A program made the translations under genes and the position numbers. Below the pieces are notes generated by a model that saw only the letters and a program-made list of their open reading frames with translations, was not told the DNA's origin and did not search any database. A stretch of 57,643 nt of DNA. Origin: Bacteroidaceae bacterium (GTDB lineage: Bacteria; Bacteroidota; Bacteroidia; Bacteroidales; Bacteroidaceae). Shown piece by piece: positions 12,803 through 51,371 of this stretch (the stretch's first letter is position 1; the number at the start of each line of letters is the position of its first letter). Where the stretch lies: the NCBI GenBank assembly GCA_045544835.1, contig JAZPZS010000001.1:1-57643 (forward strand). Reading direction: 5' to 3'.

Positions 12803-12829
12803 ATAGTTATAATTCTTCCTATGAAGATG

Positions 12830-13033: not shown

Positions 13034-13058
13034 TTAACAATTCAATTATCCTAGTTAA

Positions 13059-26310: not shown

Positions 26311-26750
26311 TCAATTACGGTACCTGGGGTATGTTTATTGCCGCTTTTCTTGCCGGCAGCATACTTCCCTTCAGCAGTGAGGCAGTCATGATAGCCCTCC
26401 TTGCCATTGGCATCAGCCCATGGGAACTGTTGTTCTATGCCGCCATAGGCAACTCACTTGGCGGCATCAGCTGCTATTGCATAGGAAGACTCACCACGCC
26501 TGAGCGTGTGCAACGCCTATTCCGCATCAAGCCTAAATATATGGAACGTGCCCATAAGCTGGTTTCGCGTTGGGGAGCTCTGATGGGCCTCTTCTGTTGG
26601 CTGCCCTTTCTTGGCGATGCCATCCTCGTCACATTGGGCATCATGCGTTCCAATGCCCTTACCACCAATATCATGATGATACTGGGGCGCACGTTGCGCT
26701 ATGCGACTGTACTGCTCGCCGCACTCGGAGCTGGCCAACTACTCACTTGA
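26286..26750 (+). CDS. YqaA/DedA-related small membrane protein
   Basis: 154 aa. The motif 'FIAAFLAGSILPFSSEAVMIALLA' is typical of the YqaA (VTT-domain) family. Confidence 0.7.
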   Translation: MDALFDILINYGTWGMFIAAFLAGSILPFSSEAVMIALLAIGISPWELLFYAAIGNSLGGISCYCIGRLTTPERVQRLFRIKPKYMERAHKLVSRWGALMGLFCWLPFLGDAILVTLGIMRSNALTTNIMMILGRTLRYATVLLAALGAGQLLT

Positions 26751-33000: not shown

Positions 33001-36000
33001 ATTAGCGTATGCGCTCAAACCTTCTACACTACCCAAGGTCTTTACAAGAACCTTATTTTCACCAGCAACCATATAGCCAAGAGACTTAGTCGGATTAGTG
33101 CTGTAGGCTTCACCTTGACGGAAGAATGCCTTACCAGTCAAACGATATTCGCCTGCAGGAAGTGTAACATCCTGCTTGAGACTTGCAGCTGTAGGAGTTT
33201 CCAATGAACCCCAACCGGCATAGAATGCCAAGAACTTGCACTTTTCTGCAAAATGGTCATCAACACCTGCGCCTGTCCAACCAGTTTCAGAAGAGAGGTC
33301 ACCATTTACTATACGCTCAGCGGTGATGTCAATCCACTCAGCAGCAGGCTCTGCACCATAGAACAGAACCTCTACATTGTCGAGACCCATCCAGTTGGCG
33401 GTAGTGTTAACACCTACGAGACCGATGGTAAGCACACCGTCAGTAACGATAGTCTCTACGGTTACTCTTTCGGGCACTTCATTAGGAGTAGCCACAGCCA
33501 AAGAGTCACCATTAGCTACCCAATAAGCTCCTGTGGTATAACCCTCTGGATCTTCATTGTACTGAGCAGTAGCCATCACGTCAGCAGACACACGGTAGAT
33601 ACCGTTAGGCATATCCAAGAGAGCCTGTACGGTAGCAGTGTTGCCAAGACCTGTTCCTGCGTTCCAACGTTCCTGGAACTTGTTCAACTCGGCACCTTCA
33701 CCAGTATAAACATTATTGCTTTGGAACTGCCATCCTGAAGCAGCTGTCCAACCATTGATAGTACCATTAGCCATATCAGGGTTGGTTACAAACTGCGTGA
33801 AAGCTACAGGAGCTGTCAAGCTTGCAGCAGGTGCAGTTGCATTGATGGCCACACTACGCTCTGCACGAGCGATAGCTGCCTCAAGCGGAGCAACAACTGC
33901 CACGAGAGTTTCTTGAGTAGGAGTCGCAAGAGCAGCCTCAGCAACAGCTACAGCTGCATCAAGCTCAGTCTTAGCGGCTTCCGCATAGGTAGCCTCTACG
34001 GCCTTAGCGGTAGCTACAAGAACAGTCACTGCATCAATATACTCTTGCAACTTGGCTAGCTCGATTTCTTCAACGGTAGCAGTACCATAGTAAGTCAAGC
34101 GGAAGTTGTCGAATACCAACCAGTCAGCCGATGCACCCGTATTGTTGGCCACACCAATTACAGCAGTGCCATCAGTTACGGTAAAGTAAAGCTCATGCTC
34201 ATAGTAACCTGCGTTGAAGAACTTAGATGCATGATTTCTGTTGTTAGGAGCAGTACCGTAAGTACCATAAGCATCACCTACGCCATCAAGCTTACCAGCC
34301 TCATCCATAACACTCATTACCAATACACTATCGGTATTAGCGAAGAACTTCACATCGTAAACCTCTGTACCTGCATCGCGAAGAGCCACTGCTGCATCAA
34401 CACCACCCATTCGGTACAGACCCTGAGCCTGAAGCTTATAGGTACCATTGGGCAGGCCTGTCAAGGTCTGGGTCACGGTAGAGATACCTGCATTCCACTT
34501 CTCTGCACAGAAGTTGTCGTTATCGCCAGCTACCGAAGGACCACCTGTCCAAGCAGAAATGGCCTGGTCGTTACGTCCGAAGTTTGCACAAGTGATCAGT
34601 GCTGTTACATGATAAGGTGTAGTAGCGTCGGCTGCAACCATATCGGCTACGATAGACTCCTTGGTGAGCAACTGCCAGTAGCTGCCATCGTTAACCTCAG
34701 CAGCAGTAACAACAACATTACCGCCATCATAGCCTACGTATGCACCATCCTTGGCAATGGTATAGATACCCTCACCTACCTCATCAAACACGAAATCTTT
34801 CTTTGCCTGGTCCACATAGAGGCCATCGCCCAAGTAGCTACCATAAGTAGACTTCAAACCGTAGACATTACCGCTACCCTCAGCGACAAATGCTACAGCA
34901 TCCTCACCGAACGAAGCACGTGTACCCCAATCGTTTCCACCCTTCAAGAAGGCATTAGACTTTACATTATATAAATAATAGGTAACACCGTTCTCGATAG
35001 CAGCACCTACCCAAGGAGACTCTACGGTAACGGGAGTTTTTAATGTAACCTCGCTCCAATCAACAACGGTCAACTGCTTGTTGCCCTTATATTCGCCAAG
35101 TGTAGCAGTAATCTTACCGCTCAGCCAGCCGCCTACAGCATAGTCTGCAGGAATGTTGTAGTCATAAACTGCCAATGTATCAACACCATCGGTGATAGAC
35201 ATATTGTTGCCACTCAGATAGGTAATCTTAGCCTTATTGACGTTCAAGTCCACTACATTACCTACTTCAAATGCCAACAACTCGGCAATAGTGTTGAACG
35301 AAGGATTAGACGGAGCCACAGGAGCTACGGTAACCTCGCCAGCCTTAAAGAGGTAAACGGGTTTCTGAACACTTGTGTAAGCGCAGAAGCGGGGGCTTGA
35401 AGCATTGTACTGAAGTACGCGCTCGGTAGTCACAGCATGTGTAATCACTGCATTGTGACCATACTGGTTGAACCCGATAGTCCATGCTGAACCCTCTGCA
35501 TCGTTAACCAAGTAGTTTCCACTAGCCCAATGTAGATAGGCACCGTTCAACTCATCCTTGAATTTCCAAGCGCCAGCTTCGCCTTCCAATGTGAGAGCAT
35601 AAGCTACACCTTCAAATTTAGCAGGAGCCTCAGCAATAGCAGTTGCTACTACAGTCTCTACAGTATAGTTCTCGCTTATAGTCAATGTATCTGAGGGCAC
35701 ACGAATCTTATCGCTCTGGTCAGACAGAGCTACCCAACCGCCGTCAACCTCAGCCATGATGAGGTACTTGCCACCAGCAACGAGGTCAGCCTCATTCTGC
35801 ACCATAGTATATACTACAGGATCGGCAGGAGTCTCAGGCTCAACGGGAGTTTCCTCAGCAGCCTGACGTACAATCACGAACTTGGTGATGAAGAGATTGG
35901 TTCCACCATCATTACGTGTCAACGTAATCGTCTTGCTACCGGCAGCCTCAGCGGGAACGAGGTAACCATGAGTGTTAGGCTCTGCACCATCATCATCATA

Positions 36001-36429
36001 GTCAGCATCAGTATCATCAGCGCAAATGTTGGTGAACACTTTGGTATCAGCTACTGTGGTACCATTCTCATACAGAAAATAAATAGTAGCCTTCTTGCCA
36101 TCAGCTTCCTTGTTACGATACGCTGTCACAAAGATTGAGTCACCCTCTTGGAGAGCCTCATTCAATGTAATAACGATACGAGTTGCATTGGCCGAAGCTT
36201 CCGTATCGGCCACATTCGCTTTCTTGCCGTTCAGGCAAAGGGAATGATACCCTGCGTTGGGATAGTTAGCACGGTCATCAGAACCCATAACGGAAGCCGC
36301 CGTACCACCCTTCTCAATCACTGTACCCTCGGGAGACTCCCATGAGTACACCACATTACCGGATGTCTGGGCAAACGACATGAATGCCACTACGACAGCC
36401 GATAAGAAAGAGATAAATCTTCTTTTCAT
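30043..36429 (-). CDS. Giant (2128-aa) multi-module T9SS cargo surface protein, paralog of 43089..51020
   Basis: Signal peptide is MKRRFISFLSAVVVAFMSFAQ. At least five jelly-roll/CBM-like modules carry a recurring '(F/C)xE(K/R)W' motif and end in 'W(V/M)G(L/F/I)(D/T)N(V/F/I)'. They alternate with Ala-rich helical linkers (FIVAR-like). A flavodoxin/GATase1-like segment reads 'YDVVVVAGNTGSG...HPIFGGI'. A Big_2 domain and a T9SS CTD '...ERGIYIINGKKVLVK' follow. Confidence 0.85.
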   Translation of the reverse strand: MKRRFISFLSAVVVAFMSFAQTSGNVVYSWESPEGTVIEKGGTAASVMGSDDRANYPNAGYHSLCLNGKKANVADTEASANATRIVITLNEALQEGDSIFVTAYRNKEADGKKATIYFLYENGTTVADTKVFTNICADDTDADYDDDGAEPNTHGYLVPAEAAGSKTITLTRNDGGTNLFITKFVIVRQAAEETPVEPETPADPVVYTMVQNEADLVAGGKYLIMAEVDGGWVALSDQSDKIRVPSDTLTISENYTVETVVATAIAEAPAKFEGVAYALTLEGEAGAWKFKDELNGAYLHWASGNYLVNDAEGSAWTIGFNQYGHNAVITHAVTTERVLQYNASSPRFCAYTSVQKPVYLFKAGEVTVAPVAPSNPSFNTIAELLAFEVGNVVDLNVNKAKITYLSGNNMSITDGVDTLAVYDYNIPADYAVGGWLSGKITATLGEYKGNKQLTVVDWSEVTLKTPVTVESPWVGAAIENGVTYYLYNVKSNAFLKGGNDWGTRASFGEDAVAFVAEGSGNVYGLKSTYGSYLGDGLYVDQAKKDFVFDEVGEGIYTIAKDGAYVGYDGGNVVVTAAEVNDGSYWQLLTKESIVADMVAADATTPYHVTALITCANFGRNDQAISAWTGGPSVAGDNDNFCAEKWNAGISTVTQTLTGLPNGTYKLQAQGLYRMGGVDAAVALRDAGTEVYDVKFFANTDSVLVMSVMDEAGKLDGVGDAYGTYGTAPNNRNHASKFFNAGYYEHELYFTVTDGTAVIGVANNTGASADWLVFDNFRLTYYGTATVEEIELAKLQEYIDAVTVLVATAKAVEATYAEAAKTELDAAVAVAEAALATPTQETLVAVVAPLEAAIARAERSVAINATAPAASLTAPVAFTQFVTNPDMANGTINGWTAASGWQFQSNNVYTGEGAELNKFQERWNAGTGLGNTATVQALLDMPNGIYRVSADVMATAQYNEDPEGYTTGAYWVANGDSLAVATPNEVPERVTVETIVTDGVLTIGLVGVNTTANWMGLDNVEVLFYGAEPAAEWIDITAERIVNGDLSSETGWTGAGVDDHFAEKCKFLAFYAGWGSLETPTAASLKQDVTLPAGEYRLTGKAFFRQGEAYSTNPTKSLGYMVAGENKVLVKTLGSVEGLSAYANSAEEGATAFYTNDLYTNVLEFTLAEETTLSIGYECDFDEMRSWMGLGSMKLEKKYTIKDRFMEVKNDYDMLAGSSMSLYSLSGVNARYMELSDKSWAIAQDIDNASIVEMNELIPAMVALAAEVKAIEVFFNDVFTPAKFACYDIQDNSTAKTPEAAAAFEDVVSLTYNVAGITDLAALQALADTLEYARRQYVVNAIPNKDFSFDYTFLVEGVGNSTNGWVKAFDSNFNRNYQYQNSDNKNTETLKKNGYIEAWNNGANFTGTLTYEATLPNGYYTVSAYAFTDGATSFVANTEAVVVEKTGMYVQPVIDSVLVKNGKMTFGLNIEGATWVGITNIELAYTGDVPADIRKAAFVERYTAMEVFSQEQLGYAWNGINNTYFWPVMDAAMAIKDTIDNVTDMALLDSMMAEMDKAEAAVLEAYVVGDEYNVIKNLFWNAADNSVAATDEVRMAMEMALENSNYAGYNIATIEALETAVADIKAAYLAYVTNAIANEGYKFDATFMLVNPSFETGDLTGWEANKANDTGVKPNTDGTYTMAGCDGDYLFNTWYGTGIYVQQTVKELPAGTYALSVVVASDDILLNITAGNKTIEHLCQGGKGTGSVVVVDSVAHEGGDFLVKVATVNNDWFKADNFQLHCLGVEDKIDVAYLCGATESTEAIYNALVAADYNVTALNYDDVSLTEEIVANDFVGKYDVVVVAGNTGSGTNLAKTANLLVGKVPVLSTKSFWYKHYGTNGDNPGTADNPSRFLVKTVAEHPIFGGIAGDTITVFNDMAKETGRYLQQNGTFADEKLAQTTLGTANGADCIGEAWVGDMGWLIIPVDGAQPEGYLTEAGKALFVNAVAYLVAGEKYEASVVEVATVTLDKTEAELTEAGATVQLTATVAPENATDKAITWTSSDEKVATVDANGLVTAVANGTATITATAANGVKAECVITVNIVDGIEAIEAVENAVIYTITGKAVQGDVKTLERGIYIINGKKVLVK
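30184..30423 (-). other. Big_2 (bacterial Ig-like group 2) domain of giant protein 1
   Basis: The sequence 'VTLDKTEAELTEAGATVQLTATVAPENATDKAITWTSSDEKVATVDANGLVTAVANGTATITATAANGVKAECVITV' matches the Big_2 pattern. Confidence 0.8.
32365..33318 (-). repeat. About 315-aa module of giant protein 1, collinear with 47307..48254 of giant protein 2
   Basis: Protein-level matches include 'VTLPAGEYRLTGKAFFRQGE' vs 'VTLPAGIYRLTGKAFFRQGE', 'NVLEFTLAEETTLSIGYE' vs 'NVLEFTLTEETTLNIGYE', 'YDIQDNSTA' in both, and 'FSFDYTFLV' in both. Confidence 0.85.
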
Positions 36430-36783: not shown

Positions 36784-38061
36784 TTAGCGGTGGGAAGCGA
36801 CCATGAAGCAATGTCTGTTGCTTTCGTAGGAATAGGTGACGGTGAGGTTGCTGACTTCACAGATAGCCTTGACAATGGAGAGGCCGAGGCCGTTGGAGTG
36901 TCTCTTGCCATGATGTGCCTTGTAGAAGCGATTGAAGAGGCAAGCGCTATCGAGCGGTTCTCCGTCACCGGTATTGGATATGCTGAGTGCACCGTCGGCA
37001 ATGTAGACATCCACAGTGCCGCCATCAACATTGTGCAGGCAAGCATTGCGCAGGAGGTTGGCGACCAAAGAGCCGATGAGCTCGTCATTGGCTGTGAGTG
37101 TCCACTGCTGCTTGTCGTAGACATTGATACGGATATCGCGAGAAGCATACACCTCGGCAAGAAGGTCGGCCTGACGGTGCACCTTTTCGTTGATGCTCAC
37201 AGCTGTTTGCTCTATGTATTGGTTGTTCTCAATCTTAGAGAGGAAGAGCAATGATTTGTTGAGGCGGATGAGCTCCGAGATGGTTTGCTGCATCTTGGCC
37301 AGTTCGCCCATCTGCTGCTCAGTGATTGCAGGGTCGTCCATCATCAGTTCGATACGGTTCTGGCAGATGGCCAATGGGGTCTGCAACTCGTGCGATGCAT
37401 CACCGATGAAGCGGCGTTCACGCTCGTAGGCTTCTTCCACACGGTCAATACAGTCATTCACCGATGCGATGAGATGGCTAAACTCCGTGACATCCGTATC
37501 GTCGACAAGCGGTTCATGGTGACCTATGCGGTAATCGTCGAGATGGCGGAGCACACGATAGAGGGGACGAGTGTGACGGACAAACACCCAAGCGAAGACG
37601 GCAATGACGACAAGGAGCATGGCAACCAACAAGATGAAGGTCGACACGAGTATGGTGCTGATGACCTCGTTGCGTTCATACACAGGGGTCATCACCGTAA
37701 GCCGCCGGTACGACCCGTCGGCACACTCAAACACGGTGTGCATGACACGCGCCGGCTCGTCCTCGTGACGCGATGCCACATAGATATTCTTGTACTCATA
37801 CTCAACCCTCTTGCCAATGCCCAGCTCTGAAGTGGAGAGCACACGCAGGAAATAGGTATTGTTGGATCCATCGGCACTGTCGGGCAAAGTCTCGCCAGCA
37901 AGGTAACGACGGATAATCTGCTCGGAATATACCTCTAACTGATCGTCCACCTCATCGATGAGTTCATCGCTAAGGATAAAGTAGAACGCCGCTGCCCACA
38001 CTCCGAAGATAAGGATGAGCGGCAAGATGAGGCTTCGGAGGGCATGTGTGGTAAGTTTCAT
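36784..38061 (-). CDS. Two-component sensor histidine kinase
   Basis: 425 aa with two TM segments. The H-box is 'DASHELQTPLAICQNRIELM' and the HATPase region is 'NLLRNACLHN...ISNTGDG...NGLGLSIVKAI'. Confidence 0.9.
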   Translation of the reverse strand: MKLTTHALRSLILPLILIFGVWAAAFYFILSDELIDEVDDQLEVYSEQIIRRYLAGETLPDSADGSNNTYFLRVLSTSELGIGKRVEYEYKNIYVASRHEDEPARVMHTVFECADGSYRRLTVMTPVYERNEVISTILVSTFILLVAMLLVVIAVFAWVFVRHTRPLYRVLRHLDDYRIGHHEPLVDDTDVTEFSHLIASVNDCIDRVEEAYERERRFIGDASHELQTPLAICQNRIELMMDDPAITEQQMGELAKMQQTISELIRLNKSLLFLSKIENNQYIEQTAVSINEKVHRQADLLAEVYASRDIRINVYDKQQWTLTANDELIGSLVANLLRNACLHNVDGGTVDVYIADGALSISNTGDGEPLDSACLFNRFYKAHHGKRHSNGLGLSIVKAICEVSNLTVTYSYESNRHCFMVASHR

Positions 38062-38735
38062 TTCTCAACCAGTTTATATCCCATACCATATACAGCAACA
38101 ATCTCGATGCCTGAGTTCCATGCCGTGAGGCGCTTACGCAGGTTCTTGATCTGTGCATACACGAAATCGTAGCTGTCCACATCATCGAAATGGTCGCCCC
38201 AGATGGCCTCGGCCAACATGCTCTTGCTGACAAGGCGGCCAGGGCGTTGCATAAAGTAAAGCAGAACGTCAAACTCCTTTCGCGAGAGGTCGACCTTCGT
38301 GTCGCCTACCCACACATCAAAGGTGTGGGGATCGACCTTCACGTTGCCGCAACTGATGAACATCTCGCCACCTTGATTGCCTCGACGCATGACACTCTTG
38401 ATACGCGAAAGCAATTCGGCCAGATGGAAGGGCTTGGCCAGATAATCATCGGCACCGAGGTCGAGGCCCTCGACCTTGTCCTCTATCGTATCGCGTGCCG
38501 AGATGATGATCAGGTTGCCAGCCTTCTTCATTGCCTTAAGTTCACGCAGAAGGTTCAGCCCATTCCCATCGGGAAGGTTGATGTCGAGGAGGATACAATC
38601 ATACACATAATCGGAAATCTTGACAAGTCCCGTACGATAGTCGGGCGCCACCTCCACGACGTAGCGTTCACGCTCCAATGTCTCGCGCAATATCTCTTGG
38701 AAAGAGAGGTCGTCTTCGATGATTAGGATTTTCAT
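38058..38735 (-). CDS. OmpR/PhoB-family response regulator
   Basis: The receiver reads 'MKILIIEDD...CILLDINLPDGNG...ADDYLAKPF' and the winged-helix reads 'LSRKEFDVLLYFMQRPGRLVSK...YGMGYKL'. It overlaps the kinase gene by 4 nt. Confidence 0.92.
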   Translation of the reverse strand: MKILIIEDDLSFQEILRETLERERYVVEVAPDYRTGLVKISDYVYDCILLDINLPDGNGLNLLRELKAMKKAGNLIIISARDTIEDKVEGLDLGADDYLAKPFHLAELLSRIKSVMRRGNQGGEMFISCGNVKVDPHTFDVWVGDTKVDLSRKEFDVLLYFMQRPGRLVSKSMLAEAIWGDHFDDVDSYDFVYAQIKNLRKRLTAWNSGIEIVAVYGMGYKLVEK

Positions 38736-41823: not shown

Positions 41824-43080
41824 TTATTTCTTCACCATCTTGAAGACACGCGTGGTGCCGTCTTCATACTCAGCAGACACGATGGTGATGCCGTGTTCGG
41901 GTGAATCTACCTCGACACCGTTTTCCTTGTAGTAACGGCGCGATACGATGCGCATCTGCGACTGGGCGATGTCGGTACCAATGACAGCCAGCTCGGCAGT
42001 CTCACCGCTGCGTACGGCAATGGCGCTCACTACGGCATCCTCAACCACCTCAAACGGAGCGGTATAGATGCTACCCTCTATGGGGTCACCATTGATAGCA
42101 TAGAGGATGGTCACGTCTTCATCTTCACAAGAGATAGTCACCACGCCATTCTCACAGGTAATCACCGGTGTGGGCAGCTCTTCTATCTCAGTAATGATGA
42201 TGGTATCGACCTTCTCGATCACGAGGGTATCAACCTCTACGATGGTCTCGGTGACAACGAGAGTATCAACTACGGTCTCGGTGACAACGAGAGTGTCAAC
42301 GATAGTGATGTAGTCTACATCAGAGAACACGACATCTTCCGTAGCGGTCTCTTCATACATATTGTCTTTGACAGCAACAGGCACTCCATTACGCTTCATG
42401 CTGCTCACCTGATAGCCCTCGAATGGGATAAAGTAGAACTTGATCTCACTGCCGTCCTTGAAAGCTTCTGTGCGAACGTATGAGCCATTAGGTTCTATGA
42501 CATTGCCTCCGAAGATACAGCGTCCATACTGACCGGCATTCACCGCCACACTACGATTCGGGATTACAATCACAGGTTCCTCTGAATACGTGATCTGAAA
42601 GTCAACCTGTCCTAAATCGTACTCTGCTACAGGATCGGATGTAGAGAACAGCATTTTGCTGAGTGTTGCCGTATAGTCACCCACTGCTACCTCATCTGTG
42701 GCCACAATGCGGAAGCTGACAATCTCGCCTGACGTTCCCTTGAACGTAGCATTTGTACTGGAGTATGCAGCGATTCGGATAGTTCCGTCATCCAAGACAT
42801 TAGGCGCCACCTGATGGGTCGATTTCTTACGGGATGCGTTCAGTGTGACATCAAGCACCTCTTCCTCATCCTCGTTGATCATTGTTGCCACATCGAAACC
42901 GTCGGGCAGTTTCAAGTCTACCTGAAATGCCGTGAACGCCAATTCATTGGCAAGTTCCACAGACACGAGTACAGAGCTACCCTTTTTCAGTTCAACATTG
43001 TTGACTGTCACGGTGTTCTGAGCTTGCAGGGCACCGAGTGCCACTGCAAGTCCTACAATCATAGAAAACATTCTTTTCAT
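41824..43080 (-). CDS. Secreted 418-aa protein: N-terminal cohesin-like module, middle beta domain, Fn3-associated-like module, possible T9SS CTD
   Basis: Signal peptide is MKRMFSMIVGLAVALGALQAQ. The cohesin-like module reads 'LKKGSSVLVSVELANELAFTAFQVDLKLPDGF...IRIAAYSSTNATFKGTSGEIVSFRI'. A later stretch is 'VTISCEDEDVTILYAINGDPIEGSIYTAPFEV'. Its start lies 8 nt after the stop of the giant gene. Confidence 0.75.
   Translation of the reverse strand: MKRMFSMIVGLAVALGALQAQNTVTVNNVELKKGSSVLVSVELANELAFTAFQVDLKLPDGFDVATMINEDEEEVLDVTLNASRKKSTHQVAPNVLDDGTIRIAAYSSTNATFKGTSGEIVSFRIVATDEVAVGDYTATLSKMLFSTSDPVAEYDLGQVDFQITYSEEPVIVIPNRSVAVNAGQYGRCIFGGNVIEPNGSYVRTEAFKDGSEIKFYFIPFEGYQVSSMKRNGVPVAVKDNMYEETATEDVVFSDVDYITIVDTLVVTETVVDTLVVTETIVEVDTLVIEKVDTIIITEIEELPTPVITCENGVVTISCEDEDVTILYAINGDPIEGSIYTAPFEVVEDAVVSAIAVRSGETAELAVIGTDIAQSQMRIVSRRYYKENGVEVDSPEHGITIVSAEYEDGTTRVFKMVKK
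42244..42303 (-). repeat. In-frame 30-bp tandem repeat (2 copies plus a degenerate third at 42211-42243)
   Basis: The unit ggtctcggtgacaacgagagt(a/g)tcaac occurs twice. It encodes 'DTLVVTETVVDTLVVTETIV'. Confidence 0.8.
42631..43020 (-). other. Cohesin-like module of the 418-aa protein
   Basis: It shares the pattern 'AFQ(F/V/L)D(L/V)xLP(E/D/A)G' and '(I/L)RV(A/V)AY(S/A)..NASF.G..G' with the two modules at the C-terminus of 43089..51020. Confidence 0.6.
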
Positions 43081-43088
43081 AATTCTCC

Positions 43089-46000
43089 TTATTTTACGAT
43101 TACTTTATTACCATTTACTACATATACTCCGCAGGGCAAGATTATGGTGCTCTTTCCGGCCTCCACTGTAGCCTGACGCACAAGTCTTCCTGTAGCAGCA
43201 TAGATGCTTACCGCAGTATCGGTACCGCACTCTACCACCACAGCACCTTCTGTGCCATATACCCGGAATGTGCCTATAACTGTGCCATCAACGTATGTGG
43301 CATCACTACGCATCAGTACGTTGACAGCAGGAGCACGGTTCTCCAGACCATCTACCGAAGCAAAGAGTCCATCGGTAAGGACAACCTCAGCATCGGCCGA
43401 CAACTCATTGGAGGTGTTCAACACAAGGTTGAGCAACGCACCTCCATCGTTGTTGAAGGAAGCATTGTCCATAGCGTATGCCACGACACGTATGGTACCA
43501 TCAGACAAGGTGTTCCATGCCATCGTATGACTCGCCTTTGCACGTCCTGTGAGTGCAACATCGGCAATCTCTACGCCAGCGGGGAGCTGCACATCCAGCT
43601 GGAAGGCACTATAGTCCTCGCCATTGCACAGCGCTACAGGAAGGACTACGCCACCATTGCTCATAAACTCAAGGTCACAGGCGTTGAGTACCGGCATTGA
43701 CACTTCACGGCGCAAGTCACGGCGTACAGGAGCCTTAGAGGAACTTTCGGTGAGCACTAAGTGCAATACGCCTACGACATCTACCATCGTAATTTGGCCA
43801 TCACCATTCAGGTCTGCAGCATTGGCGTTGAAGTTCTTCTGCTCCTTCTCCAATACGGCGTTAACCGTCATCACCACGTCAATCATCGTTACGTTTCCAT
43901 CGCTGTTGACATCACCGGGCAGGGTGTTCTCAACGGTCAGTGTGGCGGTATGATCAGCGCCCAACTTCTCCGTATCATTGCCTTCTTCATCCTTCGTCAC
44001 CATGCGGATGTTACGCATAGCGATTACATAATCGCCCTCGTCCACATCATCAATAGCTACTGCAACATTGACAAGCACTCCGCTATTGCCCACGAATGAT
44101 GCATTGGAAGTCGAGTAAGCTGCTACTCTCAAAGCACCATCAGCTTGAGGCTCAACGGCAAGTACGTGACTGCTCTTCGAGCGGTCCTTGTTGAATGCGA
44201 TGTCGTAGAGCACCTCATCATCCTCCATAGTAGATACCACAGAAACGCCTTCGGGCAGATACAGGTCAAACTGGAATGCGTTCACCGCTGTAACATTATC
44301 CATCTCGATGGGGATATTCACTACGCTGGAAGCGCGACCCTTCACATCCTGCGCCTTCATGGCGTAGTCAGTAGAGATTACAGGAGTGTCCTCAATCACA
44401 GTGAAATCAAGATTATCATATCCATTCTCCACGCCATCCTCAGTTAAGAACATACCATTGTAAAGCCACCAGAAATATCGGCCAGCAGTAGTAATAGGAG
44501 ATTCCAGTTCTAATATTACGGTCTTCTTGTCTTCGCTAATGGTCACATCCTTCTTGATACTTGTCACAGGAGTATTACGAAGGTCCACGATTGTCAACCC
44601 CTCAGTGGGCATATTTACTTCGACAATCTCTCTGTCGAAGTTCAGCACAATTGTTTCGAGCTTACTAGATTCTCTTGGAGAATAGCTTACCAGAGGGAAT
44701 GTTTCGTAGATTGTGAAAGTGAGAGTCGTCTCGGGGAACACCTCGCCATCGACACTCTTGATAGCACCTGCCGGAATGGTGTAGGTATAGGTGTCTGCAG
44801 TGGCGATCCGTTCGTATGTTCCCTTCTCATCCAGGAAGTGCAAGAATATATGAGAACCATTTGTATTCTCGACCACGATGCCTTCCCTTATGGTAAATTC
44901 CTTACCCGTATTGATGCCTCTAACAACGATACCACCCTCGGGAAGCGTAAAGATTACCTCCTCATTGAACGATAGCTTAAGGTACTCTGCCATTGGTTCA
45001 GGAATCTCACTATCGGGAGTAACGCCTACAAGCTGCAACGAAGGAACTGTATCGGTCTGTGCGGGATATTCACGGATGTACCATGCCGAAGGAGTATCGA
45101 GACCACCATACCAAGACACGATGCCTGAACTGATACCAAAGACACCTCCGTAATCACCGATGCTATCGCTCGGAACGCCCTCATTGTGGTCGCCGGCATG
45201 AACGGTGTGGATGTTGCCTCCACCATATTCATTCTCCACTCTGAATTTGAGACCGAACTGGCCTACACCGAGACAAGTCAGGTATACCGTACATGGCTGT
45301 TCGGCCAAGTGGAACTTCGCACTGTCGTTATAACTTGCATAAAGCCCTGTGGCAACATTCTTCACATTGTAGAAATACTGAGTCTCCGATATCGTCGTGC
45401 CATTACCAAGGTTTATATCCATATTCCAAGAGAGGTGTACGCCACTGTCGCCCAATACGGGTTCGAAGACGAACTCCTGCTGCAAGCTGTCGGGACAAAG
45501 ATCTCCCCACCAAAGTGTGTTGTCAGACGCATTGATTGTAATCGCCTTTTCTACCGACTGCAATTCGTAGAATGCGGGAAGGGCCGACACGATGCGGTAT
45601 GCCTTGCCGGGCTCGGGCAGACGGAAGGTCTTGTCGCTTGACTCGAACTGTTCGACAGCCTGTGACAGTTCGGCAACCATCGCCTCACACTCAGCCTCAG
45701 AAGGTTCGCCAAGCAACAATGCCTCGGCCTCGGCAATGGCATCGAGCAGATAGCTGAAGTCCTCTACATAATAACCCAGTTCGGAGCCTGAATAGGGGTT
45801 GTATCCCTTGGCCCTGTTGAGCAGCACCTCCAATGCATCACGATGAGGAGTGTCGGCTATATCGATTACCATCACGGCAGGGAAGGTCTGTTCTTGACCG
45901 ATTATGTTACCATTCTCAACGGAGTAGGCACGGGAAAGCATTCTGAAACTGAACGCATCGTAGCCACCGTCGGGGAGCGTTATCTGGAGGTAGTGATCTC

Positions 46001-49000
46001 CAGCAGGCATGTTCTCCCATGCAGAGTGGAAGTATGTTTGTGTGCTGCCATCGAAGAGAGCTGGGATGCCGCCACCATCCAGATGATTGGGGTTCAACGT
46101 GTTGTGGTCGGCATTAGAGGTGACATTCTCTTCGGTCAGCTCTATTCTGTTTCCATCACTATCATAGAACTCCAGTTCTGAGAGGCAGAAGTACTTGTCT
46201 CCCCTACCATTCCAATTTACCGTCATGCGGAAAGTCTCCACCTTATCTTCGAAACGATACAACGGGGAGGTATAACCTACAATTCTATTATCTTCGTCAT
46301 ACATCGTTGCACCCGTAATCCAACCGCTCAAGCCAGAGTAGTAATTGATTGGCATGATGGCATACTTTGTATACTCTACTGCTGTCACATCACGATAATA
46401 TGCTGCGGGAGTTTCAACGGCTCCGGTGGAATCAGTGCCATGAATCACGTTGCTCACACAGAAATCGCTGATAGTAAAGGTCCCGTCTTCAAGGCGAGTG
46501 ATGGTCAACGGAGCATTGGTAAGATTTGTATCGGTCAGACGGAAACAGCCCCTATCTTCACGATAGAACGTTAGGTATGCTCCCTCACCGGGATCAATCA
46601 CGGCTTTGCTGGGATCATCAGTTGAGGGAGTAAGCTGGATACCGCCATCGTCATTGGGCTCAATCACCCCATATCCGACAATTTCGGTGATAACATATCT
46701 ATCCGTTTCCTGATAGTATACCACCTCCATGGCAAACTGTTGGTATCCGATAAAATCATCGCTGAGCACTTCGAATTCTTCGGCTCTCACCGTATATATC
46801 CCCGCCCAGTTATAGGCTTCAGTGACAGTTGTGTCGGGGACAACGGGGGTATCGGGCAAAGCACCAACGTATGAAAGTTTCACATTGTCAAATCCTACCC
46901 AGTTAGCCCCAGAGTTTACACACTTGACGCCAATGGTCAGTTCGCCTGTAGTAACAGCAGCACTTTCCACGGTGAAGATTTCGGGGACACCGTCGTATGT
47001 AGCTACAGCAACAGAATTGTCGCCTGCAAAGAGGTAAACACCCGTAGCAGCCGCCTTTTCATCTGTAGCATGCTGGCGGGTAGCATTGACAGTCGCGGTT
47101 ACACTATAGATACCTCGGGGAAGGTTACCGATTGTCTGATAAGCCGAGGTGCTACCAAGACCACCGGTATAGGGCACCCATTTCTCCTGGAATTTGTTTA
47201 GTACAGCATCGCCATTTGTATATGAACCACTTTGATATGTCCAGCCACCTTCCCAGCCATCGACAATATTACCGGTAGTCTCCCCATCCATGTTAGGATT
47301 AACTACCAAGAAGGTATAGTCGAATGAGAAGCCCTCGGCAGGAACAGCGTTCAATACGTATGCCTGACGTGCAGCCTCCATCTCGGCTACCTTAGCCTCG
47401 AGTTCGGCAACAGTTGTTACAGAGTATACATTGAGAGCAGCGGTGAGTGCATCTTCGAACGCCGTTCTAACTTCATCTGAGTTTGCGGTAGAGTTATCCT
47501 GAATGTCATACATCGCCAGCTTGGTAGATGCGAATGTGCCCTCGTAGTATTCCAACACGGGCTTCATCTCGGCCATTGAGGTGGCCATCAGCTCCATAGC
47601 GGCTTCTACATCGGTCTTGAGTACCTTCTCGCCTTCAGAAATAGCATAGTTGAGCGGGTCTACTACAGCCATCACCTCTGACCACTTCTCCTGCACAGCG
47701 TTGAGACTATACATAGTCATGTTGTTTTGGCCAAATGCTAAGAAAGCCTCGGCCTGTGCCATAAAGTTGTCCTTGAGGGTAATCTTCTTCTCGAGTGTCA
47801 AAGCACCTACAATGAACCAAGACCTTATTACATCAAATGTCGTCTCATAACCTATGTTCAAAGTGGTCTCTTCGGTAAGTGTAAACTCAAGAACATTATC
47901 AAACGTTTCATCTGCGTAAAGTGCATCGGCTCCGGCAGGGAATTCGTCGGCCGTGCCGTTAGCACTTCCCAAGGTCTTAACCAGAACCTTGTTGTCACCA
48001 GCAATAAGGTAACCGAGAGACTTGCTTGGATTATCCTGTGGATTTTCACCTTGACGGAAGAATGCTTTACCTGTCAAACGATAAATGCCAGCTGGCAGAG
48101 TCACTTCCTGTTTCAGATAGCCTTCAGTTCTTGCCAGAGAGTTCCAACCTGCATAGAACTCCGCAGCTTTAAGACTTACATCAAATTTGTTATCATATTC
48201 CAAGCCTGTAACAGTCCACCCCTCCTTTGAGGACAAGTCTGCATTCACTATATTGTCTGTAGCATCTCCCCAAGAACCACCAGTGAGGTCATAATCCTCG
48301 TCATTCCCAGGAGTGCTGGGCAACTCATAGTCAGGACCGTATGTGGTTCCTACGTATGTGAACTTCCAGGCACTGGTTGAGCTGGCCGAGAAGATTCCCT
48401 GAGAGGGGAGAGTTACTCCTGACTGCGATGCCCAGATTGCGAATTCCGTATCCTCCTCACGGAACATAAGGAAGAGGCCGTCATCGGCAATGTTCTCAGT
48501 AGTTTCTGCTATTCGGATGTAGGCAACGTCATAGAAAACCTCCATGAAGAGGTTGCCGGTAGCAAGGTTTCTGATTACCACCTTGTCGGTAACACCTACG
48601 ATGGTATCGGTCATATCAAATGCCCAGAGCATAGTCTCATCACTGCTGTCGGTTGCTTTCCATCTGGGGTACTGACCTCCATCATCATAGATGGACATGC
48701 CTGCTGCGTAGTCGTTGACACCATCAATGGTGAACACGGGCAGGCACTTGCTTGCTTCGAAGGCTGCGATGAAGTGCTCGACAGATGCAGCGGTAGCAGT
48801 GTCTGAGCCGACGATTGCCGAAAGGTCTTCATAAGCACTTGTTCCATATTGGCCGAGGGCGGGCTGCGACGAATGATTGTCGGCATTGGCAGCCAGCAGT
48901 TCCTGTGCCTGAGCAACTAAGTAGGTCTTTCTTGCTCCTTCGGGGTCGGCAAGTATCGCCATGGCTTCGGCGGCATCGAAGTCGCCGGCCTCGGCAATGA

Positions 49001-51020
49001 GTACGGCATTACCGTTGTCGATGGTTCCCCAGCTGTCAACAGTCATCTGGCCTTGATTGCCCAGATTGATGTAAGCATCTGAGTAATCTCTGAAGCGCAC
49101 CTGCACACGGCCGGTCTCTATGGATGAGGCATCGGCAAACGCAATGGCATCTCCCACGTAAGGAACCAATGAGGCATCCTCTGCGACAAACTTCTTGGCA
49201 CTCACGCTGTAGAGATAATAATCTGTACCGTTTGCCGAAAGGATAGCAAACTGCTGGCGAGCATCCGCAGCATCAATGCTCAGTCCCTCGGTGCTTGTAG
49301 AGGAGAATATCGTGCCCTCAGCATCTACAGCCCATGCACCGCGACCAGCCGTGTTGATGGTGTAGCACTTGGTGGGGTCGGCATCGAAGAGTGAGGTCAC
49401 AGGACCTGAGGGTGTCTCAGGACCGACAGGCAGATCGAGGATTTCGTATGTGGTACCTACGAACGTGAACTTCCACGCTGAAGCGGAGTTAGCCGACTGG
49501 TCGTTCCAGCGCACGACACTCTTTCTTCCTTCATCGGCGTGTACGGGGTATCCCACACCTTCGGTGTAGAACAGGAAGAGTCCGTCATCGGCTATGCCCT
49601 CGGAGGTCTCTGTCACCTGTACGAAGGATGCTCCCCAGAAGAGGTTTCTGGTAGCCAGGTTCTTGACCACGACCTTATCGGTAACGCCAACAACGGTTTC
49701 GTTCATATCGAATACCCAGAGCATGGACTCGTCGGTACGGTCCGTCTCTTTCCAGAGCAGGCTGCCATCCACGTTTTCGTAGATTGACATACCGGCGGCA
49801 TAGCGGTAGACACCGTCGATGGTGAATACGGGCAGGCACTTGGCTGCCTCAAAGGCTGCGATGGCCTCTTCGAGCTCCTCCTTGGTGAGATTCTCATCGT
49901 CGGCCACTGCGGCCAGGGCTTCATAGGCCGATGTAGAATACTGACCGATGGCCGGAACCGATGAATGGTTGCCTGCATGGGCTGCCACGAGCTCCTTGAC
50001 TTGGGTCTTAAGGGCTTCCAGCTCCATCTGCTCGCCAGTCAGGAGCATAGCCAGGGCTTCGCCGGCATCGAAGTCACCGGTTTCGGAGATCAGCACCGCA
50101 TTGCCGGCATCGATGGTACTCCAGCTATTTATAACCAGACCCTCCCTTTCATTTACATTGACATAGGATCCGCCGAAGTCCTTGAAATATACCATCACGC
50201 GGCCTTCCCCTACGACTGAGGCATCAACGAACTCAATAGCGTCGGCAATGCCTGCGACCAGGGTGCGGCCTTGCTTGATGAACTTCTTCGCACTTACACT
50301 GTAGAGATAGTAGTCCTCATCATTCAATGAGAGGATGGCAAACTGCTGGCGGGTATCGGCGGGGTCGATGTCAAAGCCCTCGTACCCGGTAGATGAAAGC
50401 ATCGTAGCGTCGGCGCTCACTGTCCATGCTCCGCGGCCAGCCGTGTTGATGGTGTAGCATTTGGTGGGGTCGGCATCGGCCAGACTGGAGATACTCGGCT
50501 TCACCTCCGGTGCTTCGGGAGGATAGGTGCCCGTATACGGCTCTATCACGAATACGGAACCTGCGTCATTGGCAGCATAGGTGGTGTAGGCATCGTTGTA
50601 CGTGAACTCATTCCAATATTCCGAACTCTGCGTATTGCCCTTGGGGCAGATACAGAGTCCGGTAGTCCCGTCACCATAGGGAGTGACCCCGATGGTCCAT
50701 TCAATGCCGGCATCCGTCCACGAGGTCACGCTGGCCACCTTCTTCGTGGTGGCGGCGTTGTGGATGTAGCAGGCCTCTGCCGTTCCCGTGAAATAGAACA
50801 ACGACGCCAGTGTAATGTCATTGGCATCCCTGAGACCTACGTTGTCGCCTGCGTAGTACAAATACTTGCCCGATGTGGAGCGCGTGTTACTGATGGTGTA
50901 GAACACGGGATTCTCCAAGTCCGTAGACATCTGGGGCAGAGCGGTAGCACCCTCGGCTCTTACCGCAATGCTACATAGCAGCGTGGCTACCATGAGCAGG
51001 AAGTGTCTTGCGTTTTTCAT
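43089..51020 (-). CDS. Giant (2643-aa) multi-module T9SS cargo protein with F5/8-type-C-like, cohesin-like and dockerin modules
   Basis: The start is set at MKNARHFLLMVATLLCSIAVRAEG (ATG 51018-51020). It contains a tandem 364-aa duplication, jelly-roll/helical modules collinear with giant protein 1, and a discoidin-like module. The tail reads cohesin-like, dockerin, cohesin-like, T9SS CTD ('...ILPCGVYVVNGNKVIVK'). Confidence 0.85.
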   Translation of the reverse strand: MKNARHFLLMVATLLCSIAVRAEGATALPQMSTDLENPVFYTISNTRSTSGKYLYYAGDNVGLRDANDITLASLFYFTGTAEACYIHNAATTKKVASVTSWTDAGIEWTIGVTPYGDGTTGLCICPKGNTQSSEYWNEFTYNDAYTTYAANDAGSVFVIEPYTGTYPPEAPEVKPSISSLADADPTKCYTINTAGRGAWTVSADATMLSSTGYEGFDIDPADTRQQFAILSLNDEDYYLYSVSAKKFIKQGRTLVAGIADAIEFVDASVVGEGRVMVYFKDFGGSYVNVNEREGLVINSWSTIDAGNAVLISETGDFDAGEALAMLLTGEQMELEALKTQVKELVAAHAGNHSSVPAIGQYSTSAYEALAAVADDENLTKEELEEAIAAFEAAKCLPVFTIDGVYRYAAGMSIYENVDGSLLWKETDRTDESMLWVFDMNETVVGVTDKVVVKNLATRNLFWGASFVQVTETSEGIADDGLFLFYTEGVGYPVHADEGRKSVVRWNDQSANSASAWKFTFVGTTYEILDLPVGPETPSGPVTSLFDADPTKCYTINTAGRGAWAVDAEGTIFSSTSTEGLSIDAADARQQFAILSANGTDYYLYSVSAKKFVAEDASLVPYVGDAIAFADASSIETGRVQVRFRDYSDAYINLGNQGQMTVDSWGTIDNGNAVLIAEAGDFDAAEAMAILADPEGARKTYLVAQAQELLAANADNHSSQPALGQYGTSAYEDLSAIVGSDTATAASVEHFIAAFEASKCLPVFTIDGVNDYAAGMSIYDDGGQYPRWKATDSSDETMLWAFDMTDTIVGVTDKVVIRNLATGNLFMEVFYDVAYIRIAETTENIADDGLFLMFREEDTEFAIWASQSGVTLPSQGIFSASSTSAWKFTYVGTTYGPDYELPSTPGNDEDYDLTGGSWGDATDNIVNADLSSKEGWTVTGLEYDNKFDVSLKAAEFYAGWNSLARTEGYLKQEVTLPAGIYRLTGKAFFRQGENPQDNPSKSLGYLIAGDNKVLVKTLGSANGTADEFPAGADALYADETFDNVLEFTLTEETTLNIGYETTFDVIRSWFIVGALTLEKKITLKDNFMAQAEAFLAFGQNNMTMYSLNAVQEKWSEVMAVVDPLNYAISEGEKVLKTDVEAAMELMATSMAEMKPVLEYYEGTFASTKLAMYDIQDNSTANSDEVRTAFEDALTAALNVYSVTTVAELEAKVAEMEAARQAYVLNAVPAEGFSFDYTFLVVNPNMDGETTGNIVDGWEGGWTYQSGSYTNGDAVLNKFQEKWVPYTGGLGSTSAYQTIGNLPRGIYSVTATVNATRQHATDEKAAATGVYLFAGDNSVAVATYDGVPEIFTVESAAVTTGELTIGVKCVNSGANWVGFDNVKLSYVGALPDTPVVPDTTVTEAYNWAGIYTVRAEEFEVLSDDFIGYQQFAMEVVYYQETDRYVITEIVGYGVIEPNDDGGIQLTPSTDDPSKAVIDPGEGAYLTFYREDRGCFRLTDTNLTNAPLTITRLEDGTFTISDFCVSNVIHGTDSTGAVETPAAYYRDVTAVEYTKYAIMPINYYSGLSGWITGATMYDEDNRIVGYTSPLYRFEDKVETFRMTVNWNGRGDKYFCLSELEFYDSDGNRIELTEENVTSNADHNTLNPNHLDGGGIPALFDGSTQTYFHSAWENMPAGDHYLQITLPDGGYDAFSFRMLSRAYSVENGNIIGQEQTFPAVMVIDIADTPHRDALEVLLNRAKGYNPYSGSELGYYVEDFSYLLDAIAEAEALLLGEPSEAECEAMVAELSQAVEQFESSDKTFRLPEPGKAYRIVSALPAFYELQSVEKAITINASDNTLWWGDLCPDSLQQEFVFEPVLGDSGVHLSWNMDINLGNGTTISETQYFYNVKNVATGLYASYNDSAKFHLAEQPCTVYLTCLGVGQFGLKFRVENEYGGGNIHTVHAGDHNEGVPSDSIGDYGGVFGISSGIVSWYGGLDTPSAWYIREYPAQTDTVPSLQLVGVTPDSEIPEPMAEYLKLSFNEEVIFTLPEGGIVVRGINTGKEFTIREGIVVENTNGSHIFLHFLDEKGTYERIATADTYTYTIPAGAIKSVDGEVFPETTLTFTIYETFPLVSYSPRESSKLETIVLNFDREIVEVNMPTEGLTIVDLRNTPVTSIKKDVTISEDKKTVILELESPITTAGRYFWWLYNGMFLTEDGVENGYDNLDFTVIEDTPVISTDYAMKAQDVKGRASSVVNIPIEMDNVTAVNAFQFDLYLPEGVSVVSTMEDDEVLYDIAFNKDRSKSSHVLAVEPQADGALRVAAYSTSNASFVGNSGVLVNVAVAIDDVDEGDYVIAMRNIRMVTKDEEGNDTEKLGADHTATLTVENTLPGDVNSDGNVTMIDVVMTVNAVLEKEQKNFNANAADLNGDGQITMVDVVGVLHLVLTESSSKAPVRRDLRREVSMPVLNACDLEFMSNGGVVLPVALCNGEDYSAFQLDVQLPAGVEIADVALTGRAKASHTMAWNTLSDGTIRVVAYAMDNASFNNDGGALLNLVLNTSNELSADAEVVLTDGLFASVDGLENRAPAVNVLMRSDATYVDGTVIGTFRVYGTEGAVVVECGTDTAVSIYAATGRLVRQATVEAGKSTIILPCGVYVVNGNKVIVK
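43092..43271 (-). other. T9SS C-terminal sorting domain of giant protein 2
   Basis: The sequence is 'TFRVYGTEGAVVVECGTDTAVSIYAATGRLVRQATVEAGKSTIILPCGVYVVNGNKVIVK'. Confidence 0.8.
43272..43700 (-). other. Cohesin-like module 2 of giant protein 2
   Basis: The sequence is 'GGVVLPVALCNGEDYSAFQLDVQLPAGVEI...TIRVVAYAMDNASFNNDGGALLNLVLNTSNELSADAEVVLTD'. Confidence 0.6.
43755..43922 (-). other. Type I dockerin module (two EF-hand-like Ca-binding repeats)
   Basis: The sequence is 'LPGDVNSDGNVTMIDVVMTVNAVLEKEQKNFNANAADLNGDGQITMVDVVGVLHLVL'. Two D-x-N-x-D-G-x-(I/V)-x-x-x-D loops are each followed by a helix, which is the canonical dockerin duplication. Confidence 0.85.
43923..44369 (-). other. Cohesin-like module 1 of giant protein 2
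   Basis: The sequence is 'VKGRASSVVNIPIEMDNVTAVNAFQFDLYLPEGVSVV...ALRVAAYSTSNASFVGNSGVLVNVAVAIDDVDEGDYVIAMRNIRM'. Confidence 0.6.
45852..46259 (-). other. F5/8 type C (discoidin)-like module
   Basis: The sequence 'FCLSELEFYDSDGNRIEL...IPALFDGSTQTYFHSAWENMPAGDHYLQITL...FSFRMLSRA' has the 'FDG..T.(W/F)HS.W' pattern of discoidin domains. Confidence 0.6.
48339..50477 (-). repeat. In-frame tandem duplication of a ~364-aa (1092-bp) unit within giant gene 2
   Basis: The motif 'DADPTKCYTINTAGRGAW' starts at ORF-track residues 214 and 578. Both units continue through 'QQFAILS..DYYLYSVSAKKF', 'CLPVFTIDGV..YAAGMSIY' and 'SAWKFT(F/Y)VGTTY'. Confidence 0.9.
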
Positions 51021-51371
51021 GACTATAAGACTTAAAGTTAATAAAAGATTGGTTTCTCTCTTGCCTATAAGTCCTCCAAAGTCAGCGGTAATAATGTGTT
51101 TGACTACCAGATACAAGAAAAGCGCAAGGACTTGTCGAGCTCATCGAAAATCTGGTATCGCCAAACACCGTGAAGAGAATGAACCGAGAAACAAATACCT
51201 CACGCTGTCGTATATACCTTCGTGGGGTACAGCACAGGCCGTACACGGTGTATACAAACAGAATGAGCGCATCGTTGTTCTCACCCCTCTTCGTTGAAAT
51301 TGGCGATTTCGATTTCCGGGTAAAAGCAAGAAACGCTTTCTTGACCCGAGGATTTCTTCCCTCAGGTGCTA

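Follow-up and report, generated by a model that had tools for sequence, protein, structure and literature searches.

The 57,643-nt stretch of DNA that was analysed as a whole (the window; positions 1 to 57,643 of contig JAZPZS010000001.1, assembly GCA_045544835.1 of a Bacteroidaceae bacterium) harbors a two-gene locus encoding a giant secreted protein and a secreted partner of 418 aa, p418, which, judged from the sequence, is a unit of a non-cellulosomal cohesin-dockerin system tied to export of the type IX secretion system (T9SS) kind, the binding itself being predicted. Close to its C-terminus the giant protein carries a dockerin flanked by two cohesin-fold modules, Coh1 and Coh2, and a third module of this family, Coh3, follows the signal peptide of p418. 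The open reading frame (ORF) of the giant protein spans 43089-51116 on the minus strand and gives a protein of 2643 aa when it is read from the ATG at 51020, the N-terminus of which, MKNARHFLLMVATLLCSIAVRA, reads like a signal peptide. Its stop codon (43089-43091) is separated by a spacer of 8 nt, GGAGAATT, from the ATG of p418 at 43080, and an AAGGAG-like motif upstream of the p418 start overlaps the stop codon of the giant-protein gene. The main features are the following.

43089..51020, minus strand: giant-protein gene, from ORF and translation; signal peptide, passenger of about 2200 aa, Coh1, dockerin, Coh2 and C-terminal domain (CTD)
41824..43080, minus strand: gene of the secreted 418-aa partner p418, 8 nt behind the stop of the giant-protein gene; 116 homologs
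43917..44375, minus strand: Coh1 (m1), giant residues 2216-2368, joined to the dockerin without a linker; PF00963 below threshold, AlphaFold2 (AF2) model, Foldseek
43746..43919, minus strand: dockerin, type I-like, giant residues 2368-2425; PF00404, two calcium loops
43707..43745, minus strand: flexible linker between dockerin and Coh2, giant residues 2426-2438; AF2 predicted local distance difference test (pLDDT) below 50, model residues 217-229
43281..43706, minus strand: Coh2 (m2), giant residues 2439-2580; BLASTP to m1 and m3, AF2 beta-sandwich
43092..43271, minus strand: probable C-terminal sorting domain, T9SS type A-like/DUF6383, giant residues 2584-2643, ending in GVYVVNGNKVIVK
42571..43020, minus strand: Coh3 (m3), p418 residues 21-170, N-terminal; PF00963 below threshold, AF2 model, Foldseek

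Profile matches, transitive homology and Foldseek place all three modules in the cohesin fold and family, and we regard it as highly probable that the modules of the giant protein and p418 are true cohesin and dockerin homologs. The modules are clearly related to each other by BLASTP, with E=7.9e-27 (39% identity) for m1 and m3, 1.2e-18 for m2 and m3 and 5.6e-16 for m1 and m2. A scan of the six-frame translation of the window with the module profile and for dockerins found no copies beyond these three modules and the one dockerin. The initial annotation of this DNA, which had been made by reading the sequence, therefore holds in naming three homologous beta-modules as candidate cohesins, one dockerin, and a secreted 418-aa protein 8 nt downstream that begins with such a module, as confirmed by its ORF, its signal peptide and m3. 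Within the family, PF00963 matches nine of 15 aligned members (best E 7.6e-10), and distant members lie above its cutoff, such as P0034 with 75 bits, P0132 with 47 bits and the partner protein of locus L067 with 34 bits. When the family profile was compared with the PDB, seven of the ten best matches, including the six best, were cohesins, these matches being weak (2XDH with E 0.007, NagJ, 5N5P).

The fold was modeled with AF2 for the last 433 residues of the giant protein (17 sequences, mean pLDDT 82.4, predicted template modeling score (pTM) 0.51) and for p418 (26 sequences, mean pLDDT 72.5, cohesin part 84-94), and Coh1 appears as a beta-sandwich with a pLDDT of about 87-95. Foldseek matched the model of the giant cassette, without distinguishing Coh1 from Coh2, to 5NRM (TMt 0.77), 3UL4 (0.75), 2XDH (0.74) and 4UMS (0.73), and the p418 model to 6KGC_A (TMt 0.80, root mean square deviation 2.5 A), 2JH2 (0.78), 3UL4 (0.75) and 2XDH (0.74). 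Thus, the modules also pass the check for a cohesin fold that had been proposed at the outset, with TMt values of 0.73-0.80 against solved type I cohesins, whereas type II cohesins fit more poorly (0.45-0.57). In these alignments the modules share 11-18% identity with solved cohesins. Throughout the family the residues F-Q-x-D-L-x-L-P as well as a His before strand 5 are invariant, and the Q-x-D surface motif on strand 3 may correspond to the N37/D39 contact residues of C. thermocellum Coh2. An acidic hairpin insertion is present in Coh1 and Coh3 and missing in Coh2. Each of the three modules is closer to its positional counterparts in other genomes than to its paralogs in the same genome: Coh1 groups with the Coh1 of L001, L002, L004 and L080, and Coh2 with the post-dockerin cohesin of L001-L004. 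Since Coh1, Coh2 and Coh3 thus form separate positional orthologous groups, the three positions can be assumed to be old and distinct. A role of the beta-modules as carbohydrate-binding modules (CBMs) was considered as well and ruled out, as every well-fitting single-domain Foldseek match (TMt about 0.6-0.8) is a cohesin.

The dockerin of the giant protein is canonical and internally symmetric with two calcium loops, and cohesin binding is predicted for it. It scores 44.5 bits with PF00404 (43.1 bits in the full protein) at a cutoff of 22.9, and consists of two duplicated segments, in each of which a loop of the form D-x-N/D-x-D-G with a D at position 12 precedes a helix; this bears out the duplicated dockerin of the initial annotation. 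Both loops, DVNSDGNVTMID (nt 43878-43913) and DLNGDGQITMVD (nt 43779-43814), comprise 12 residues each and are intact and canonical. Degenerate loops in orthologs had been named at the outset as a sign against the proposed surface complex; instead, the loops are kept in 16 relatives, down to 25% overall identity. The top sequence matches in the PDB are the cellulosomal dockerins 6KG9, 1DAQ and 2MTE, and AF2 places three helices at model residues 169-179, 189-192 and 202-214. In the dockerins of related loci the two halves are strongly symmetric, as in dual-binding type I dockerins.

The last 60 residues of the giant protein form a seven-strand domain in the AF2 model (pLDDT about 80-87). This tail is probably a sorting domain of the T9SS type, because related tails match the respective models and the same ending recurs on two other secreted proteins of the window. 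Among 12 related tails, seven match DUF6383 (best 2.9e-7), six match Por_Secre_tail and seven match TIGR04183 (best 2.6e-6), and an ending of the form ...G[IV]Y[IV]..G.KV.VK is also found on a 2128-aa protein (30043-36429) and on an alpha-galactosidase with NPCBM domains (26743-29544).

Across the family, and relative to the profile ends, the spacing from cohesin to dockerin has a median of 0 aa (interquartile range (IQR) 0-1, n=206 junctions), and that from dockerin to cohesin a median of 15.5 aa (IQR 13-23, n=170 junctions). In the AF2 model the Coh1-dockerin junction is confident and the linker between dockerin and Coh2 is disordered, which argues for a rigid Coh1-dockerin dyad to which Coh2 is tethered. 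Moreover, as no linker separates them, Coh1 probably cannot bind its own dockerin in cis.

Many Bacteroidota from gut, rumen and the environment carry the predicted non-cellulosomal cohesin-dockerin system. An exhaustive, profile-based search of 1.84 billion cluster representatives (clusters at 50% identity) with the module profile yielded at least 10,004 proteins at E<=1e-3, of which 1,765 reached E<=1e-30, and 3-14 copies of the module are present in many of them. Therefore, the view that the arrangement in the window is singular was overstated, as it is one instance of a family that comprises no fewer than 10,004 clusters and in which single, scaffoldin-like proteins carry as many as 14 cohesins. 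The top profile match has 14 module copies, CarboxypepD_reg domains and a Por_Secre_tail, and P0031, P0032, P0038 and others likewise combine 8-14 cohesin-family modules with CarboxypepD_reg and Por_Secre_tail, which makes them scaffoldin-like T9SS cargo. A dockerin is also present in 106 of the 149 top module-bearing representatives, the commonest architectures of which are C-D-C-T, C-C-D-C, poly-C and C-D-C (C, cohesin; D, dockerin; T, sorting tail). Separately, each GTDB species was represented by one genome and scanned for a single 9-residue motif, which led to 108 confirmed loci, nearly all from metagenome-assembled genomes (MAGs) of rumen or gut Bacteroidales (Bacteroidaceae, Prevotella, Muribaculaceae, Paraprevotella, Alloprevotella) and a few from Draconibacterium, Prolixibacteraceae and Calditrichaceae. 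The closest relatives of the locus proteins are all metagenomic. In related loci the dockerin proteins are giants without assigned function, S8 and C10 peptidases, and leucine-rich repeat (LRR) proteins; the C10 peptidase with a dockerin occurs in L012, a Muribaculaceae MAG. Small proteins with one cohesin and one dockerin exist as well: P0015-P0018, P0021 and P0022 are metagenomic, several of them ending in a short tail ...(D/E)PQ, and behind many C-D-C genes, as in L010, L012, L015-L017, L019, L023 and L038, there are genes of small, adaptor-like proteins of 200-290 aa composed of signal peptide, cohesin and dockerin.

All ORFs of 79 Bacteroidota loci from species representatives were scanned with custom cohesin, dockerin and tail profiles, and cohesin and dockerin genes were found to form tandem arrays on the same strand. 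A dockerin ORF lies directly upstream on the same strand for 36 of the 47 cohesin-only ORFs and directly downstream for only two, a bias with a two-sided binomial probability of about 5e-9 by our own arithmetic. In the downstream partners the first cohesin starts right behind the signal peptide. The cohesin partner downstream of a dockerin gene is thus a conserved feature and no coincidence. This order is obeyed by the C-D-C-T giants of L001-L006, L080 and the window as well as by the D-C-T giants of L003 and L075. In Draconibacterium and its relatives (L067, L071, L041, L042 and L047) two or three tandem S8 peptidases, each with dockerin and CTD, precede a protein with three cohesins. L067 belongs to a cultured isolate, Draconibacterium sp. 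IB214405 (NZ_JAXBMA010000002.1, 845-16115), and its operon encodes, in this order, two S8 peptidases with a dockerin and a T9SS tail each, the three-cohesin protein, and an LRR protein of the BspA type, which likewise ends in a T9SS tail; this isolate would be a tractable model of the system. Synteny of giant and p418 is kept in L001-L006, and in L080, which stems from a closely related strain, the gene order is that of the window: helicase, NadB, giant, p418, prfB, CYTH, SLT, response regulator, histidine kinase and second giant. Between L080 and the window p418 is 97% identical and the giant 96.6% identical over the common part.

The partner p418 begins with MKRMFSMIVGLAVALGALQA/QN, in which residues 1-20 are the signal peptide with the cleavage motif AQA/QN, and Coh3 follows directly. 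Downstream of Coh3 the following features were assigned.

42304..42555, minus strand: second beta-sandwich of p418, FN3/Ig-like, residues 176-259; AF2 pLDDT about 84
42184..42300, minus strand: tandem repeat linker of p418, residues 261-299, units like VDTLVVTETV; variable, AF2 pLDDT below 50
41827..42165, minus strand: C-terminal part of p418, Fn3_assoc/CHB_HEX_C_1 (residues 306-363) and a 42-aa tail; PF13287, PF13290
41766..41796, minus strand: terminator-like hairpin, 14-bp stem with 10 G-C pairs, just past p418; ends the two-gene unit

The top Foldseek match for p418 is 2W1N, a double module of cohesin and FN3, and a comparison of whole p418 with PDB sequences gave no match. Tandem Repeats Finder detected a 30-nt period at 42244-42300, which is an in-frame repeat of p418; the orthologs, 370 to about 730 aa long, differ widely in repeat number. 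The repeat is predicted to be disordered and is rich in D-T-[L/I/V] triplets, which match the general O-glycosylation motif of Bacteroidetes, and may thus serve as a spacer that is glycosylated and varies in length. The C-terminal domain reaches 32.5 bits with PF13287 and 31.7 bits with PF13290. The 42-aa tail is conserved and ends with KMVKK; its pattern, Y-x-x-x-G ... G-I-T-I-V ... K-M-V-K-K, resembles the CTD-like ends of the partners, and most partner proteins of other genomes end in clear CTD-like tails of the form ...GVYI.NGKKVVVK.

The explanation that accounts best for the locus as a whole, and that we consider rather likely, would be a T9SS-linked non-cellulosomal system connecting the giant protein with its operon partner, with further copies of itself, or with both. 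The giant protein would be exported by the Sec pathway and then pass the outer membrane through the T9SS via its type A-like C-terminal domain. Upon removal of the sorting tail it would be held at the cell surface with its C-terminus nearest to the membrane, and since it would be held there by the C-terminus, the Coh1-dockerin-Coh2 cassette would be the membrane-proximal base from which the passenger of about 2200 aa projects outwards. The dockerin would bind a cohesin in trans and in a calcium-dependent manner. The likeliest socket would be Coh3 of p418, whose gene is co-transcribed, because the conserved operon rule places a gene with one or more N-terminal cohesins behind a dockerin-bearing one; that p418 is the direct partner of the dockerin is nevertheless a tentative assignment, toward which we lean less than away from it. 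Coh1 would either buttress the dockerin in the manner of an X-module or serve as a socket for another molecule, and Coh2 on its flexible linker of about 15 aa would be a further socket. Surface proteins would in this way come together in hetero- or homo-oligomeric clusters, and no enzyme-collecting cellulosome would be formed; that the cohesins and the dockerin of the two proteins mediate such surface assembly seems fairly probable to us.

Several points weigh against this explanation. With 19.8 bits for m1, 18.9 bits for m3 and m2 unreported, all three modules stay below the PF00963 cutoff of 24.1 bits, so that the hmmscan check proposed in the initial annotation came out in favor of the dockerin and not of the cohesins. 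The T9SS sorting domain that had been read into the giant protein is made probable by matches of related tails, but its own scores fall short, with 23.2 bits for DUF6383 (PF19910) at a cutoff of 23.7 and 19.3 for TIGR04183 at a cutoff of 23, and no T9SS machinery genes are found within the window. Surface anchoring had been assumed for both proteins and is probable for the giant protein with its signal peptide and T9SS-like tail; for p418 it is no more than putative: its tail gave no match in Pfam/NCBIfam or with a custom CTD hidden Markov model, and its alignment to the CTD profile by hhalign had a probability of 3%, so that we do not claim p418 as T9SS cargo. If p418 were periplasmic, it could not meet the dockerin. 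Furthermore, with a pTM of 0.51 the cassette model is silent on domain-domain contacts, and as the window has three cohesins and one dockerin, most sockets are without a partner in view.

An alternative that we consider unlikely is self-assembly only, in which the dockerin would bind Coh1 or Coh2 of a neighboring giant protein to give head-to-tail chains or a lattice, and p418 would bind dockerins encoded elsewhere. One dockerin and two cohesins per chain permit polymerization and branching, and with its symmetric halves the dockerin could bind in a dual mode. No architecture is more common than C-D-C(-T), with 37 ORFs in the loci and 30 of the 149 top representatives, and arrays such as CDCDCDCT exist. 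However, self-assembly leaves unexplained why a cohesin-only gene stands behind a dockerin gene (36/47), and likewise the cohesin-free dockerin proteins with a downstream cohesin protein in L067, L041, L042, L047 and L071.

Even less probable is a purely intramolecular arrangement, in which the dockerin would fold back on Coh2 in cis or pack on Coh1 as on an X-module-like buttress, resulting in a rigid, calcium-stabilized stalk without recruitment. The lack of a cohesin-dockerin linker across 206 junctions and the confidently modeled Coh1-dockerin junction speak for it, as the X-dockerin dyad of type II dockerins resembles the linker-less Coh1-dockerin pair, and the linker to Coh2 (IQR 13-23 aa in the family) is long enough for binding in cis. 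A fixed arrangement is, however, unsupported by the pTM of 0.51 despite the high pLDDT of the single domains, D-C-T, lone-D, small C-D and poly-cohesin proteins are sensible only with binding in trans, and the adjacency of the partner gene is conserved. Finally, that there is no pairing at all, the cohesin-fold modules being spacers or glycan binders and the dockerin a calcium-binding stabilizer, would agree with the scores of all three modules below the Pfam cutoff, with the 11-18% identity to solved cohesins and with the many non-cellulosomal dockerin-like modules that reportedly have no known partner, but it is very improbable in view of the tight co-occurrence (106/149 top module proteins with a dockerin) in adjacent genes, the invariant F-Q-x-D-L-x-L-P and His before strand 5, and well-fitting single-domain Foldseek matches that are cohesins and no CBMs.

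Returning to the T9SS-linked system as the preferred explanation, it could be part of something broader, a cohesin-dockerin "surface assembly code" of the Bacteroidota's own that is coupled to the T9SS, with cognate pairs side by side in operons and poly-cohesin (<=14) outer-membrane scaffoldins, and that would organize giant adhesin-like proteins, S8/C10 peptidases and LRR proteins into defined complexes at the Gram-negative cell surface. Here we are nearly undecided, with a slight inclination to doubt. If such a code is true, the cellulosome would have a counterpart that is not cellulolytic and that has largely been missed by surveys based on Pfam thresholds. If the pairs bind, this would explain how giant surface proteins and proteases are arranged on the outer membrane of the dominant gut and rumen Bacteroidales, and would provide testable cognate pairs, including those in the cultured Draconibacterium, as well as orthogonal plug-and-socket parts with which proteins could be displayed on Gram-negative cells.

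Besides its C-terminal cassette, the giant protein consists largely of its passenger, for the 2210 aa of which a PDB sequence search gave no match. Pfam assigns DUF5013 and Dockerin_1 to the giant protein, and Cohesin and DUF6383 below threshold. The N-terminal part of the passenger (window 48309-50432, residues ~197-904) comprises two tandem units of ~350 aa that are 53% identical. The giant of L080 has a single copy of this ~350-aa unit and 2279 aa compared to 2643 aa, thus the passenger copy number differs between strains. The second giant secreted protein of the window (2128 aa, 30043-36429, minus strand) contains a Big_2 domain and ends in the same sorting tail as the cohesin-dockerin giant, with which it shares a 470-aa region of 40% identity (DUF5013); neither a cohesin nor a dockerin was found in it. 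A two-component system (36784-38735) lies between both giant genes, with the same layout in L080. The alpha-galactosidase at 26743-29544 on the minus strand has three NPCBM domains and the tail ...GIYIHKGSKVVVK; as it carries the sorting tail and no dockerin, glycoside hydrolases (GHs) of this organism also use the sorting tail. Furthermore, a 1130-aa ORF (2380-5772, plus strand) has a signal-peptide-like start and no Pfam family at E<=1e-5. A cellulosome can be ruled out for the window, in accordance with the initial annotation, since there is neither a scaffoldin nor a dockerin-bearing carbohydrate-active enzyme (CAZyme): none of the GH3, GH88 and alpha-galactosidase proteins of the window bears a dockerin, and none of its proteins is multi-cohesin.

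Cohesin-dockerin pairing is usually regarded as a trait of Gram-positive cellulosome producers. Nevertheless, a rumen metagenome study that included no binding tests has described Prevotella and Bacteroides dockerins together with a few Bacteroidetes cohesins (PMC6487960), and a rumen peptidase C10 with a dockerin, which is of the same type as that of L012, was described by Bensoussan et al. (PMC6487960). Rumen Bacteroidetes genomes have also been stated to lack cohesins and dockerins (PMC5831590), or dockerins but no cohesins were detected in rumen Bacteroidetes (PMC10266427). These earlier statements that Bacteroidetes have no cohesins fit the sub-threshold Pfam scores. Bacteroidales cohesins are very numerous, mostly lie under the Pfam cutoff, and are combined with dockerins into fixed cassettes, which are carried by cargo of the T9SS type and follow a simple operon rule. 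A limited literature search turned up neither the cassette nor the operon rule nor a tested Bacteroidota pair, and prior work may exist.

In its presumed way of working, the locus would be closest to the C. perfringens complexes, OlpA/OlpC, ScaC and the dual-module protein of Archaeoglobus. With the clostridial cellulosomal type I pairs (C. thermocellum OlpA/OlpC/CipA, C. acetobutylicum CaCohA2-Doc0917 and A. cellulolyticus ScaB; 3UL4, 4DH2, 6KGC, 5NRM) it has the jelly-roll cohesin fold in common (TMt 0.73-0.80), and their dockerins are of the same duplicated F-hand design as the dockerin of the window. Similar to p418, OlpA and OlpC have a single N-terminal cohesin plus other domains. In contrast to the clostridial cellulosomes, however, the window has no dockerin-bearing CAZymes and no cellulose-binding scaffoldin, its host is Gram-negative, and a T9SS-type tail takes the place of anchoring by S-layer homology (SLH) domains or sortase. 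The window modules also differ from the clostridial pairs in the fusion of cohesin and dockerin without a linker, the 11-18% identity and the sub-threshold PF00963 scores.

The system of Clostridium perfringens glycosidases and toxins (NagJ/NagH/NanJ; 2W1N, 2JH2, 2OZN, 2VO8) is likewise non-cellulosomal and joins large secreted multi-domain proteins. Its cohesin-FN3 pair 2W1N is the top p418 Foldseek match, and the best matches of the family profile include the cohesin of NagJ. It differs in that its members are secreted enzymes of a Gram-positive organism with a single cohesin or dockerin per protein and no cohesin-dockerin-cohesin cassette, and we know of no conserved downstream partner gene for these proteins. 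Like the giant protein, the Archaeoglobus fulgidus protein (2XDH) has cohesin and dockerin in one polypeptide, its host is non-cellulolytic, and it is the best PDB match of the family profile (E 0.007, TMt 0.74). The archaeal host is, however, without a T9SS, and this protein is a single case compared to more than 10,000 clusters with fixed operon order. ScaC, an adaptor scaffoldin of Ruminococcus flavefaciens (5LXV) with one cohesin and one dockerin, resembles the small Coh-Doc proteins of 200-230 aa that follow Prevotella C-D-C genes, but ScaC plugs into a cellulosome, whereas the Bacteroidota cargo consists of giants, S8/C10 peptidases and LRR proteins.

Regarding export, T9SS type A cargo such as the gingipains of P. 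gingivalis and ChiA of F. johnsoniae has, like the giant protein, a signal peptide and a beta-sandwich tail of ~60-70 aa with a K-x-x-V-K-like ending, and the models for such cargo, TIGR04183 and PF18962, give sub-threshold to significant matches across the tail family of the giant. Known assemblies of T9SS cargo rely on linkage to anionic lipopolysaccharide (A-LPS) and on PorV-type shuttles, and to our knowledge no described T9SS cargo uses cohesin-dockerin pairing. What sets the locus apart from its closest counterparts is the T9SS setting in a Gram-negative host, a Coh-Doc dyad without a linker, the C-D-C-tail cassette and a partner gene in a fixed position.

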